Sequence record: PZ445446.1
Source of the DNA: a phage
Strand: one strand, 5' to 3'
DNA: 64,000 bases
Below, piece after piece: positions 2,121-64,000 of the stretch; positions within the stretch are counted from its first letter, which is position 1, and the number at the start of each line of letters is the position of its first letter. The translations under genes and the position numbers were made by a program. The notes beneath the pieces are model-generated. The model was not told where the DNA came from. It saw nothing but the letters and a program-made list of their open reading frames with translations, and made no database searches.

Positions 2121-3346
2121 TGAGCGTTATTCAACAATTTGCTAACCCGATGAATCCGCGTGAAACTGTTTTACTGGCTCACGGCATGATTAAACGTGTC
2201 AGCATCAAACCTATCAAAGGTGCTGATCCTACAACAGGTATTAAAACCACTGTGTGGCAAGGTAAGAAAATTGAGTCCAGCCACACCATCTCTTTACTGA
2301 TTTCTGAACTGGATTCCTCTGATAACCTGCTTCAAGGTGGTGAAGAAGTCTGGATCAGTATGGGTGATAAACTGCTTAAACCGGGTCATCAAGACTCTGT
2401 CTCTGTTAAAATTGATGACAAGTGGGAAACCGTAACACCGGGATGGATCGTAAATATCCCTTTGAAGGCAAACGAGCATAACGGTAAGACCTATTACAAA
2501 GGCTCACTGGCTAAGATGGTCAAGCTGGGGGCAGGAGAGGCTCCAGCAGCGACTCAGCAGCAAAAACAGCAACAAGGTGCACAATCACAAGGCCAGAAGC
2601 AGAAACCTCAGCAGAATGCCAATCAGGACGTTTTACGCATCTATGGTGATGTGACTCAGATTGTTGGCAACGTGGTTACTGTTAATGACCACAAGATTGG
2701 CGAAGGTGCTATGGTTGTCACTGATGAGCAGCTTAAAGACCTGGTGGTAGGTGGTCGTGTTGCAGCCATTGTTGACAAAGACACCGGAAACATTATCAGT
2801 GGTTTCAAAGCCTATCCACCTAAGTCAGAGAACGGCACCCAAGGCTCTGGTGGCAAGCGTAAATCCTCTTACGACCCTATTGGTGTGGAGACGGGACATA
2901 GCATCAATGCGTTGCAAATCATCCTAGATCGCGGGTTTAAGGTGGACGACCCACTAAGCGTGGCTAAAACACTGCACGTAGTCACCATTGAGCTTAAGAA
3001 AGAGTATGCTCAAGCCACCAACCGAACTGAGGATGAAGTAGGTGCCAGTGTCGGTAATGCGGTGTTGAACGCTTGTCGCCGTATTGACAAGAAAACGAAA
3101 GTTGATGATTTTGCAGCGGCAATTACTGCAGAAGCAAAAGATGTCTTGACTAATCTGGCTGAGCCGTTGTACGATTGGATCAAGAACGGTGCTGGGTCAA
3201 CTGACCATCAAGAACCTCAGGCTGCCAAACAGGAAGCAGCTCCACAGCAAAATACTGTAGACGCTCCTCCTGTAAATGATGAGGAAGATGACCCGATGGA
3301 TCAGAATCCAGCACAGTACGCCTTTGATGATGACATCCCATTCTAA
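2120..3346 (+). CDS. single-stranded DNA-binding protein-like (two-domain, acidic C-terminal tip)
   Basis: 408 aa; ends in DDDIPF, identical to the conserved C-terminal tip of bacterial SSB; Q-rich low-complexity linker; second acidic stretch before the tail. Confidence 0.5.
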   Translation: MSVIQQFANPMNPRETVLLAHGMIKRVSIKPIKGADPTTGIKTTVWQGKKIESSHTISLLISELDSSDNLLQGGEEVWISMGDKLLKPGHQDSVSVKIDDKWETVTPGWIVNIPLKANEHNGKTYYKGSLAKMVKLGAGEAPAATQQQKQQQGAQSQGQKQKPQQNANQDVLRIYGDVTQIVGNVVTVNDHKIGEGAMVVTDEQLKDLVVGGRVAAIVDKDTGNIISGFKAYPPKSENGTQGSGGKRKSSYDPIGVETGHSINALQIILDRGFKVDDPLSVAKTLHVVTIELKKEYAQATNRTEDEVGASVGNAVLNACRRIDKKTKVDDFAAAITAEAKDVLTNLAEPLYDWIKNGAGSTDHQEPQAAKQEAAPQQNTVDAPPVNDEEDDPMDQNPAQYAFDDDIPF

Positions 3347-4187: not shown

Positions 4188-4613
4188 ATGATCTATGAAA
4201 TGCCAAAACTGATTCGTGACGATGCCCAAAACGCTCACACCATTATTATGGGCAAACGCATGGATATTATTTGTCATAAAGATTTCTGGGAAGGAAGTTA
4301 CTTCACAGAGTATTTTGGTAAACTGGACAATGGTCTGCTGATCCAGTTCTACACCGATGCGGAAAACAACATTCACTGGGAGTTCGAAACTGAAGATATC
4401 CATAAACTTTTCACCTTCCTCGGTATTAAGGTTGAGGCCAAGTTTGAAGAAGGTGAGTGCGACGATTGTGGATTCTATGAGGTAACAGATTTCTACCTTC
4501 CAAGTGGTAAAAATCTCTACTACGAAAGCCACTTCGGCAACTCAAATATGCCACAGGGTTGGGATGAGTTTTTGGAAATTGCAGAAGAGGAGCTGAAATA
4601 CCGTGATTATTGA
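4188..4613 (+). CDS. hypothetical protein
   Basis: 141 aa ORF; overlaps downstream gene start. Confidence 0.45.
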   Translation: MIYEMPKLIRDDAQNAHTIIMGKRMDIICHKDFWEGSYFTEYFGKLDNGLLIQFYTDAENNIHWEFETEDIHKLFTFLGIKVEAKFEEGECDDCGFYEVTDFYLPSGKNLYYESHFGNSNMPQGWDEFLEIAEEELKYRDY

Positions 4614-5061
4614 TACTGTAAAGGGAGATCTAATCTCCATTTTCAAGAAAGGGTCAGGCCACATGATCCACGGTTGTAACTGCTTTCACACAATGGGTGC
4701 AGGTATAGCGAAAGATATTGCCCGTGAGTTCCCTCAAGCACTGGCAGCCGACAAAGAGACTGCTTATGGTAATCTAGACAAGCTGGGTATGTTTTCTTGT
4801 TGGGAGCATTTTGCCAAGACCAGGGTCGTATATGGAATCAACCTGTATACCCAGTTCTACCCAGGGCCCAATGCTGAATACTTCTCAATCATGAAAGGTT
4901 TTGAGCGAGTCAACGAGGTATTCAAAGGTATGTCATTGCCGTTCTACATTCCTAAAATCGGATGCGGTATTGGAGGTCTAAAGTGGGAACATGTAGAAGA
5001 TGTAATTAATCTTGCAACCACAGATATTGATGTGGTTGTAGTAGAGTACAAAAAGTGTTGA
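4603..5061 (+). CDS. macro-domain-like protein (putative ADP-ribose binding/processing)
   Basis: 152 aa; HGCNC...MGAGIAKDIA and IPKIGCGIGG resemble macro-domain glycine-rich ADP-ribose binding loops. Confidence 0.4.
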   Translation: MIIDTVKGDLISIFKKGSGHMIHGCNCFHTMGAGIAKDIAREFPQALAADKETAYGNLDKLGMFSCWEHFAKTRVVYGINLYTQFYPGPNAEYFSIMKGFERVNEVFKGMSLPFYIPKIGCGIGGLKWEHVEDVINLATTDIDVVVVEYKKC

Positions 5062-61766: not shown

Positions 61767-61863
61767 ACATACTGAGCTAGGTAAGCCCTTTGGCAAGGGC
61801 GAGGATTTTTAATCCTGAAAATAGACGAGGTAGTCGTTGAATACATAGGTGGTTCGATTCCAT
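61767..61863 (+). tRNA. atypical tRNA-like gene (UUU-like anticodon loop, ~30-nt extra region, no encoded CCA)
   Basis: Perfect 7-bp acceptor gctaggt/acctagc, normal D-arm (gccc-tttggcaa-gggc) and T-arm (ggtgg-ttcgatt-ccatc), anticodon-like loop tttttaa; ~30 nt between anticodon and T arms; 3' end is CCT. Confidence 0.4.
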
Positions 61864-61870
61864 CACCTAG

Positions 61871-61946
61871 CACCTTTTTGCTGATGTAGCACAATCGGTA
61901 GTGCAATTGATTTGTAATCAATAGGTTGTAGGTTCAAGTCCTGCCA
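61871..61946 (+). tRNA. tRNA-Thr (anticodon UGU)
   Basis: Acceptor gctgatg/catcagc, D-stem gcac/gtgc, anticodon stem attga/tcaat with loop tttgtaa, T-loop ttcaagt, CCA encoded. Confidence 0.75.
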
Positions 61947-62540: not shown

Positions 62541-62939
62541 ATGATTTCAGGTTTAACATGGCTGAGTAGGTATAGAGGGATCATAAAAGGTTTAGTTTTT
62601 GCAGCGGCTATAGGTACAGCTTATCTTGGGGCCGTGTATTGGTTTAACTCTAAGCTTAATGAAGCATACCAAGAAGGTGTGTCAGCAACAGAGTTGAAGT
62701 GGGAACGGATCCTTGATCAGCAACAAAAGCAGGCCGACAAAATTAAAATGGGCCACGCAGAGGAGGTTAAAAACCTTGAAAAATCCCTTTCTGATCTACA
62801 GGATAAATTAAATATAGCTGAGAGGGCAGGTAGAGAAAAGCAGATTATCTACCTCCAATCACCTGAAGGTAAGAAGTCAACACTTCCTGATCAGCTTATA
62901 GATATTTATAATGAGAGTATCAATCAGGAGGATCGATGA
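62541..62939 (+). CDS. i-spanin (Rz-like)
   Basis: 132 aa; N-terminal TM helix then charged coiled-coil-like region; overlaps downstream lipoprotein gene. Confidence 0.5.
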   Translation: MISGLTWLSRYRGIIKGLVFAAAIGTAYLGAVYWFNSKLNEAYQEGVSATELKWERILDQQQKQADKIKMGHAEEVKNLEKSLSDLQDKLNIAERAGREKQIIYLQSPEGKKSTLPDQLIDIYNESINQEDR

Positions 62940-63223
62940 GAGTTGCCACACTGTTTATTGCGTGCTTGTTATTATGTGGGTGTGCAACCAGCGTTGAGAG
63001 AGAATACAAGATTGACCCTCCGGATGTAGGAAGGTTGATTGTTAAACCCCCAGAAGGTGCCATGAAACCACCTGCTAAAGCTATGCCTTTGAAGAAAGGT
63101 GCGCCAGATGCAGTGAATTCTGGCATTATGAGGGATAATAATCTGTCTTGTAGCAATGATAGAGCTAAATTGATCATTTTGCAAGACTATATTAGAACAC
63201 TGTTTCCAAAGGAGAGAGGTTAA
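62936..63223 (+). CDS. o-spanin (Rz1-like outer-membrane lipoprotein)
   Basis: 95 aa; signal plus lipobox-like LLLCGCAT, proline-rich mature region; ATGA overlap with upstream gene. Confidence 0.5.
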   Translation: MRVATLFIACLLLCGCATSVEREYKIDPPDVGRLIVKPPEGAMKPPAKAMPLKKGAPDAVNSGIMRDNNLSCSNDRAKLIILQDYIRTLFPKERG

Positions 63224-63648
63224 TGTCTAAGATTTACGGACCGTGTTCTGAAAAGCAGAAGATGATCCTCGAAAACGATGCAGATATTTTGGTAATCGGC
63301 GGTGCCGCAGGGTCTGGCAAGTCGTTCCTCTTGCAATTGATGCCACTTAAAATTATTGATGACCCCCACAGCTCTGTGGTTATGTTCCGAAGAACAACCC
63401 CGCAGTTGGAAGGTGAGGGTGGACTATGGCCTAAAGCGGTAGCTATTTATAGTGATCTGCCTGAAAACATTAAGCCAAAGTTCAGAGAGAAGGATCATAA
63501 GTTCATTTTTCCACGGTTTGATCCGAACACTGGCAAGTGGGATAGAAGCAAAAAGGGAGCTGTTGTAAAATACTGCCACATGGAGTATGTACAAGATAAG
63601 CTTAACCATCAAGGGCTTGAGTACACCATGGTTTGCTTCGATGAGGGT
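63223..63648 (+). CDS. terL: terminase large subunit, exon 1 (ATPase N-terminus, interrupted by intron)
   Basis: Walker A GGAAGSGKS and Walker B-like MVCFDEG; ORF stops after only 142 aa exactly where group I intron elements begin. Confidence 0.6.
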
Positions 63649-64000
63649 TAATTTGTAGCTCTCGTAAAACCTCCCTAATTGCGGGGAAATCTTTACTATT
63701 AATACCACCAACCTGTCATGGTAACATGATAGAGGCTTCGAAGAGAGATCGAAGGTATGGTAACAGTGTGTTAATTTAGATAATCCGCAGCGAAGCATCC
63801 GAGAGGATGAACGTTCAACGACTAGTCGAAAGACGTAGAATCAAGCGATTCGAAACGGGAGGATAAGCGGTTGTTGTCGCTTATAAGATATAGTCTGGTC
63901 TGCATGGAGACATGCAGCTGCCTGAAAATGGCGGGGCAAGACTAGCGACCTTGCCCGAACATAAACGACACAATTCGAATGGGAGCAGATAGACTATCTG
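63649..64000 (+). ncRNA. group I self-splicing intron (5' portion; continues beyond window)
   Basis: Core elements in canonical order: P-like aattgcggggaaa (~63677), Q-like aatccgcagcg (~63782), R-like gttcaacgactag (~63813), S-like aagatatagtc (~63885); exon ends in U; candidate IGS gctctc can pair with exon gagggu. Confidence 0.65.

Follow-up and report, generated by a model that had tools for sequence, protein, structure and literature searches.

The 3' end of a 64,000-nt stretch of phage DNA (record PZ445446.1; the whole stretch is called the window below) raises the question of how a gene for the large terminase subunit can give a full-length protein when its reading frame closes almost immediately after the Walker B motif. 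An earlier note on this DNA had proposed that the gene, terL, is broken at that point by a group I intron which runs off the window, leaving neither the 3' exon nor any homing endonuclease gene visible. The interruption just after Walker B was borne out by the covariance-model match, the structure, the junction seen in the intron-less allele of phage JeffSchatz and prior annotation; the supposed truncation was not. With a probability of about 0.93, the element is a complete, ORF-less, IA-like group I intron of 319 nt in the terL gene of an rV5-like coliphage, removed by ordinary splicing.

The ORF at 63223-63651 was found to encode 142 aa with the C-terminus ...TMVCFDEG*, and translation recovered both this end and the Walker A sequence exactly where the earlier note had put them. 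The parts of the interrupted gene are the following.

63223-63648, + strand: terL exon 1, 142 codons, N-terminal part of the TerL ATPase domain (ORF, Pfam)
63298-63324, + strand: codons of Walker A (P-loop), GGAAGSGKS, aa 26-34 (read from the translation)
63628-63645, + strand: codons of Walker B, MVCFDE (read from the translation)
63649-63967, + strand: group I intron, complete, 319 nt, ORF-less, IA-like (Rfam; junction of the intron-less allele)
63649-63651, + strand: in-frame TAA, the first three intron bases, which ends translation of unspliced RNA at 142 aa
63967, + strand: terminal (omega) G, with which the intron ends (placed by the intron-less allele)
63968-64000, + strand: start of terL exon 2, TQFEWEQIDYL, cut by the window end (frame translation, intron-less junction)

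Comparison with the intron-less allele puts the insertion point one codon (Gly) past the Walker B codons. The 3' exon, which had been thought to lie out of sight, is represented in the window by 33 nt, that is, by 11 codons only. Exon 1 together with these codons matched Terminase_6N (PF03237) with 29.7 bits (cut-off 22). Since the window and phage slur12 are 100% identical over the 778 nt that they share (63223-64000), the remainder of exon 2 was taken from slur12, where it runs about 362 codons further than the window end. The spliced slur12 protein of 515 aa gave 72.2 bits with Terminase_6N and 27.9 bits with Terminase_6C (PF17289). Judged from these domains, the spliced product would be a bona fide TerL with an ATPase and a nuclease domain, the latter encoded outside the window. 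When the first 286 residues of TerL were used in a tblastn search, more than 1300 phage records matched across the junction; the one-piece matches included intron-less homologues in Cronobacter, Klebsiella, Pectobacterium, Rheinheimera and Pseudomonas phages.

The earlier note had proposed the Rfam model Intron_gpI (RF00028) as a check on the intron. This model matched 63639-63917 with 84.3 bits and an E-value of 5.5e-20, 34 bits over the gathering score of 50. The match spanned model positions 1-253 of 253, was not truncated, and was the only non-tRNA Rfam hit in the 64-kb window.

The exact boundaries were obtained from JeffSchatz (MZ501082), which has an uninterrupted terL of 1548 nt. After removal of 63649-63967, the window was collinear with this gene and the protein was identical across the junction; among junction offsets from -4 to +4, 0 alone reproduced the uninterrupted terL. 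As the natural intron-less allele fixes the junction, and thereby the 3' end at 63967, the intron is complete at 319 nt, and it does not run off the window, as the complete Rfam match also indicates. On the 5' side, the U63648-G63658 wobble in P1 places the splice site after 63648, which makes the TAA the first intron triplet; the earlier note had read this stop codon in the same way, and the intron-less junction agrees. On the 3' side, P9 is followed by hairpins at 63920-63932 and 63934-63956 and then by ...AACAUAAACG, ending at G63967. Stop codons were present in all six frames of 63649-63967, so the intron of the window holds no endonuclease ORF. Nor is one to be sought downstream, a possibility left open by the earlier note; in the relatives that have such a gene it lies inside the P8 loop.

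That the likeness to a group I intron is due to chance, and that the real terL lies elsewhere and has left this ORF as a truncated terminase pseudogene, is next to inconceivable. The truncated ORF itself, and nothing else, favours this explanation. It is contradicted by the full-length RF00028 match with its E-value of 5.5e-20, by the exact junction that the intron-less alleles give, by the continuation of exon 2 in identical relatives such as slur12, and by the tblastn search, which recovered exon 1 only and no second terL in the 64-kb window. The pseudogene explanation was therefore rejected. A full-length TerL encoded elsewhere, which the earlier note had named as an outcome that would overturn its proposal, was thus not seen in the window, and exon 2 was found to continue in slur12.

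In agreement with the group I intron, a full set of helices from P1 to P10 could be built by hand. The conserved P, Q, R and S elements reported in the earlier note each occur once in the 64-kb window, in canonical order. They were mapped together with the helices as listed.

63643-63663, + strand: P1, 6 bp, exon GAGGGU (63643-63648) with the internal guide sequence GCUCUC (63658-63663)
63654-63656, + strand: UGU, the 5' part of the guide sequence, which can form P10 with exon-2 ACA (63968-63970)
63670-63675, + strand: P3 5' strand CCUCCC, with its partner GGGAGG at 63857-63862
63677-63689, + strand: P element AATTGCGGGGAAA, which holds the P4 5' strand UGCGGG (63680-63685)
63689-63781, + strand: P5, AUCU (63689-63692) with AGAU (63778-63781), enclosing a three-helix extension at 63698-63775 (MFE fold)
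63782-63792, + strand: Q element AATCCGCAGCG, which holds the P4 3' strand UCCGCA (63784-63789)
63790-63814, + strand: P6 with the P6a hairpin, CAUCC (63796-63800) with GGAUG (63805-63809)
63813-63825, + strand: R element GTTCAACGACTAG, which holds the P7 5' strand GACUA (63820-63824)
63825-63851, + strand: P7.1, GUC GAAA GAC (63825-63834), and P7.2, GAAUC AAGC GAUUC (63838-63851)
63863-63884, + strand: P8, a short hairpin of 7 bp in the window copy
63885-63895, + strand: S element AAGATATAGTC, which holds the P7 3' strand UAGUC (63891-63895)
63900-63956, + strand: P9 (63900-63917, GAGA loop), P9.1 (63920-63932) and P9.2 (63934-63956)

P7 is formed by GACUA (63820-63824) and UAGUC (63891-63895) and crosses P3 as a pseudoknot; in this model it is the predicted guanosine-binding site. 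P7.1 and P7.2 follow P7 and precede the P3 3' strand; in the Rfam alignment they show up as 29 nt that the consensus does not have. The unconstrained minimum free energy fold of 63643-63967 reached -109.3 kcal/mol (z = -5.7), and none of 100 dinucleotide shuffles folded as well. This fold recovered P1, P3, P4, P5 with the three-helix extension, P6a, P7.1, P7.2, P8, P9, P9.1 and P9.2. Together with the RF00028 score, the z value places the group I match far beyond chance. The canonical structure, written out with the P7 pseudoknot and a P10 of 3 bp, had 96 pairs, every one of them standard in the window.

The structure was also compared with nine natural ORF-less variants of the intron. Paired bases were found in 99.5% of 864 pair cells, against 35-41% when the partners were slid by 1-3 columns; because the variants are 96-100% identical and one sequence of the alignment had served to derive the structure, this shows consistency and not strong covariation. 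P1 (including the U63648-G63658 wobble), P3, P4, P5, P6/P6a, P7, P7.1, P7.2, P9 and P9.1 were invariant. The sole variation in P8 and P9.2 was a one-sided switch to a G-U pair. Three pairs had changed on both sides, all of them compensatory and all in the peripheral P5 extension. P10 was paired in 26 of 27 cells, which is weak support for a helix of only 3 bp in its simple register.

Introns of subgroup IA2 (T4 td/nrdB/sunY type) are characterized by a T4-type core and by two additional helices, P7.1 and P7.2, that separate P7 from the P3 3' strand. The intron of the window has P7.1 and P7.2 and no P2. In blastn, its core resembled phiKZ introns as well as td and nrdB introns of the T4 type. 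By inspection, these features point to a T4-like member of subgroup IA, perhaps of IA2.

On this architecture, the following course of splicing is proposed. The terL gene would be transcribed as a single pre-mRNA, in which the intron would fold into the P1-P9 ribozyme. External guanosine would attack the phosphodiester after U63648, held in P1 by the U-G wobble with G63658, and the freed 3'-OH of exon 1 would then attack after the terminal G63967, with the UGU/ACA pairing of P10 helping to align the 3' exon. Ligation would give ...MVCFDEG-TQFEWEQ... and so restore the 515-aa TerL with its Terminase_6N ATPase and Terminase_6C nuclease domains; a peptide across the ligated exons would span ...MVCFDEGTQFEWEQIDYLMSR. 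Unspliced RNA would yield the 142-aa fragment only. Splicing would thus be obligatory for full-length TerL, and hence for packaging, as the TAA is the first intron codon.

No splicing experiments on this intron were found in the literature searched. We infer catalysis by guanosine-dependent self-splicing from the structure and by analogy with two other terL systems. In the Vequintavirinae phage CB7, an HNH-bearing terL intron was found by RT-PCR to be spliced in vivo (PMC7344957), and TerL introns of Bastillevirinae were found to splice in vitro and in vivo (PMC11878797).

Alternatively, the intron could be a decayed relic that no longer splices, with TerL being made as two polypeptides that assemble, as is reported for NrdA of Aeromonas phage Aeh1, which is split by mobE. 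The GenBank records of slur12, HMD-6 and SophiaRose do give two separate terminase CDS, the window copy has lost or never had an endonuclease gene, and non-splicing split genes occur in phages, as cited in a passage of PMC7344957. Against a relic, the catalytic core is intact and invariant in the nine variants, the peripheral changes are compensatory, the RF00028 score lies 34 bits over the threshold, and the -1 U needed for P1 is kept in every intron-bearing allele. Neither a start codon nor a ribosome-binding site is present at the exon-2 junction, and initiation at the next annotated start (MVISCNPD) would cost the ATPase domain 24 residues, among them the TQF segment directly after Walker B. 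Such a relic is very improbable, and a splicing-competent group I intron is preferred.

The distribution of the intron was examined among related phages. Fifty-two phage-collection records carry it in terL, of which 22 have an ORF-less form and 30 have an endonuclease insert; in about 66-70 other Vequintavirus records the site is without an intron, so that its presence is patchy (about 52 of about 120 related records). The ORF-less set includes slur16/slur12 at 100% and rV5 at 97.2% identity over 319 nt. In the endonuclease form, 564 extra bases replace the P8 loop (window positions 63870-63877), as seen in the alignment. The insert of phage WalterGehring encodes a 196-aa protein of the Endonuclease VII family (PF02945, 76.1 bits). 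The element of the window belongs to a mobile intron family in which the P8 loop of sister copies holds a gene for a homing endonuclease of the Endonuclease VII type. Having no such gene, the window copy would be able to spread only by recombination or with the endonuclease of a co-infecting phage.

A second terL intron site was found after codon 248, outside the window. It is occupied in rV5, where the intron carries an HNH_3 gene, in RudolfGeigy, where the intron is ORF-less (Rfam, 95.6 bits), and in one IMG/VR contig, and it is unoccupied in slur12. The Rfam search with its gathering threshold missed two endonuclease-bearing introns, intron 1 of L002 and intron 2 of rV5, and these were placed by alignment; ORF inserts of 560-700 nt that break the model are the likely cause. 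In addition, IMG/VR was scanned for an R...P3'...S core pattern, which gave 13 loci, 9 of them with the pattern site inside a full Rfam group I hit. None of the 13 was in terL of the family of the window, and their peripheral helices were too different for reliable alignment.

A further question is whether the intron does more than persist selfishly and serves as a switch that times TerL production or couples it to the energy state, in which case the 142-aa fragment might itself have a role. The idea arises because splicing needs guanosine or GTP and translation of unspliced RNA ends with the first codon of the intron. The position of the TAA exactly at that codon fits it, as does the near identity of the ORF-less form in 22 records despite no endonuclease driving it, and the notion of a 'molecular on-switch' has been put forward for introns that phages carry in their terminase, polymerase and rNDP reductase genes (PMC11878797). 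On the other hand, the intron is absent from over half of the otherwise near-identical Vequintavirus phages, viable isolates all the same, from which it follows that the intron is dispensable. Its presence or absence is also independent of the backbone, as expected of a mobile element. A regulatory function is consequently considered improbable, and ordinary splicing of a mobile intron remains the preferred reading.

Evidence related to mobility was found in the flanks of the intron. The intron-bearing alleles all read GGT|ACA CAA at the junction, and the five intron-less alleles that were read all have GGC or GGA followed by ACG CAG. In rV5_ev147 and phiWec189, the 93 nt around the junction differ from the window at -1, +3 and +6 only, all three differences being synonymous. 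An intron-less allele with intron-type flanks would mean either a precise loss or a naive homing site. No such allele (GGTACACAA) was seen among the 60 of 138 records listed, and the best one-piece match to the spliced junction among these was 96.8%.

On a wider scale, the window is a mosaic rV5-like Vequintavirus. Its segment 40000-62000 is closest to the intron-less JeffSchatz (98.7%). In 62541-63217, 4 mismatches were counted against JeffSchatz and 22 against slur12, and in 63218-64000 the counts were 11 and 0, respectively; the switch from JeffSchatz-like to slur12-identical sequence lies between 63217 and 63288. These counts place a recombination breakpoint near the terL start and are consistent with arrival of the intron together with about 400 nt of the 5' exon. 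Across the phages, presence or absence of the intron does not track the backbone.

The breakpoint near the terL start partly supports co-conversion as the source of the junction differences. A simple long tract cannot explain all alleles, since rV5_ev147 and phiWec189 differ at the three junction bases only. The triplet may alternatively reflect a requirement for U at -1 in P1 and a strengthening of P10 by A at +3 and +6, or a resistance of the intron-less sites to the endonuclease. It is conceivable, if on balance doubtful, that the three synonymous differences record an ongoing conflict, in which intron-less alleles resist the Endonuclease VII-type enzyme and the bases on the intron side strengthen P1 and P10. 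If true, the terL locus would be a compact natural system for the study of homing-endonuclease resistance, and possibly of interference between co-infecting coliphages.

The intron as such is already known, having been described in rV5 in 2013 and annotated in many relatives. The section 'Introns in terminase' of the rV5 paper (Kropinski et al. 2013, Virol J 10:76; PMC3606486) reports terL in three segments, with one intron carrying a homing endonuclease. That call rests on BLASTX and expert inspection, David Shub being thanked for the location of the introns (PMC3606486). The rV5 RefSeq record gives a three-piece join ('ORF64ABC'), the BASEL records give terL joins with a 'putative homing endonuclease', and the LL12 record has an 'intron-containing gene'. 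In the records of slur12/slur16, HMD-6, SophiaRose and Pr121LW, terL is present as two separate or truncated CDS. The group I intron reading is accordingly supported by existing annotation and literature as well as by the covariance-model match, the hand-built P1-P10 structure and the restoration of the frame.

The additions made here are modest: the exact coordinates, the helix map, the correction to a complete and ORF-less intron, the census of three allelic states, the synonymous triplet at the junction, the nearby breakpoint and the misannotation of several genomes as two CDS. Their main value is for annotation, given that the use of terL as a phylogenetic marker and predictor of packaging type in Vequintavirus needs exact splice coordinates. 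The locus is also a textbook case of a mobile group I intron seated where an essential ATPase is most conserved, with three allelic states side by side in near-identical phages; current understanding is unchanged by it.

Among known systems, the closest are the first terL intron of rV5 (ORF64ABC, NC_011041) and those of slur16/slur12, LL12 and RudolfGeigy, which are the same element at the same site as in the window, with the same exon flanks and ORF-less architecture and no substantive difference. The one distinction at the level of the gene is that rV5 and RudolfGeigy have the extra intron after codon 248, which slur12 is without. The introns of WalterGehring, APECc02, JES2013 and rV5_ev168 share the site and the flanks, and their ribozyme is about 98% identical outside P8; they carry the 564-nt Endonuclease VII insert in the P8 loop, where the window has its short 7-bp hairpin.

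More distantly, the T4 td/nrdB/nrdD/sunY introns (IA2) gave 72-82% blastn identity over the R, P7.1-P7.2, P3' and S-P9 regions. Like the intron of the window, these T4-type introns have P7.1/P7.2, no P2 and an in-frame stop near the 5' splice site, and interrupt the gene of a conserved nucleotide-handling enzyme. They differ in the host gene and in the peripheral P5 extension, and the window copy is ORF-less.

Other large terminase genes are interrupted as well. Lactobacillus phage LL-H has a group I intron in this gene (Mikkonen and Alatossava 1995, as cited in PMC3606486). The terL intron of Pectobacterium phage CB7, spliced in vivo (PMC7344957), carries an HNH gene, and that of Bacillus phage SIOphi was spliced in vitro and in vivo (PMC11878797); both are unlike the intron of the window in sequence.

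In Aeromonas phage PhAER-3 (PQ495740.1), the TerL shows about 42% identity over residues 143-286, from exon 2 onward. All terL pieces in that record are annotated as hypothetical protein. The second intron of PhAER-3 interrupts terL between the homologous codons (FDEL|THF, where the window has FDEG|TQF), and here too position -1 is a U, which pairs with a guide sequence, GAGCUC. PhAER-3 differs from the window in having one more intron upstream, so that the Walker B segment is encoded by a mini-exon of 39 nt, and in the HNH_3 endonuclease gene within its intron at the site common to both; the window copy is ORF-less.

A recombination breakpoint separates the intron-bearing terL segment of the window from its upstream flank. 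In a comparison over 62541-64000, the breakpoint was located between 63217 and 63288. On its 5' side the window is JeffSchatz-like, with 4 mismatches to JeffSchatz versus 22 to slur12, whereas on its 3' side no mismatch to slur12 was found, as opposed to 11 to JeffSchatz. The nearest relative of the 22 kb further upstream (40000-62000) is also the intron-less JeffSchatz, with 98.7% identity. For the window's initial 22 kb, the best matches in the phage collection reach only 94-96%, indicating that the source phage is a mosaic, and no close match to the whole window was found in that collection.

All intron-bearing terL alleles display the junction GGT|ACA CAA (window 63646-63973). In contrast, all intron-less alleles read (retrieved sequences L005, L007, L008, L022 and L023 were compared) carry GGC or GGA followed by ACG CAG. 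The two classes differ at three synonymous positions, -1, +3 and +6 relative to the splice junction, which are the sole differences from the window over 93 nt in the intron-less phages rV5_ev147 and phiWec189. These differences could reflect an adaptation to P1/P10 pairing or a co-conversion tract of minimal size. Alternatively, the intron-less junctions may be target sites that withstand the endonuclease.

A second intron site is present in terL after codon 248, 3' of the window end. It is occupied in three retrieved sequences:

L003, 4006-4701, second terL intron site
L001, 1735-1961, second terL intron site
L007, 3904-4885, second terL intron site

The three belong to rV5, whose intron at this site has an HNH_3 endonuclease gene, to RudolfGeigy, whose intron is ORF-less (Rfam, 95.6 bits), and to an IMG/VR contig. 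No intron was found after codon 248 in slur12 and WalterGehring.

In four deposited records, LN881735 (slur12), PQ505080 (HMD-6), MW748998 (SophiaRose) and MH752840 (Pr121LW), terL is not annotated as a spliced join but is divided into two CDS, independent or truncated. An internal Met serves as the start of the second one, which therefore omits 24 residues of the ATPase domain. In Escherichia phage V18 (L024, NC_041937.1, 101-201), terL is likewise split into two annotated CDS, and the break coincides with the site of intron insertion. The sequence there contains a duplicated stretch of 9 nt (GGTTTGCTT) and lacks a G in GAGGGC, which shifts the reading frame. Either an error arose during sequencing or assembly, or repair left a scar at the homing site.

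About 18 records titled "Campylobacter phage" were found to be Vequintavirus genomes, 97-99% identical to coliphages at the terL intron locus. They are UNVERIFIED, with C. jejuni as stated host (collection matches H156, H157, H162, H163, H185-H188 and others, MG0656xx), and are probably wrongly labelled or derived from contaminated preparations.

The tRNA cluster of the window includes one unusual member, detected by ARAGORN and Rfam:

61776-61874, + strand, tRNA-like gene, 99 nt

ARAGORN assigned the label "tRNA-???" and an anticodon of 4 bases (atcc); the Rfam tRNA score was only 35.5 bits. The variable arm is long and the anticodon stem-loop irregular; the anticodon is possibly UUU. The slur12 annotation lists this gene as tRNA-???, and the rV5 RefSeq record has no annotation for it.

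In the terL of Aeromonas phage PhAER-3 (L006, PQ495740.1, 2367-5131), two group I introns flank a mini-exon:

L006 2723-2954, intron A, Rfam match of 91.4 bits
L006 about 3003-3041, mini-exon of 39 nt, QGLQYSFVGFDEL
L006 3154-3804, HNH_3 gene inside intron B

Every terL or intron piece is labelled hypothetical protein in this record. Two full-length group I introns per contig were found in six IMG/VR contigs of 29-269 kb (L011-L015 and L020) sharing the R...P3'...S core pattern, none of them within a terL of the window's family. In L013 the introns (4274-4565 and 4616-4874) lie only ~50 nt apart, which suggests a further mini-exon arrangement. PhAER-3 intron B interrupts terL at the same codon boundary (FDEL|THF) as the window intron.
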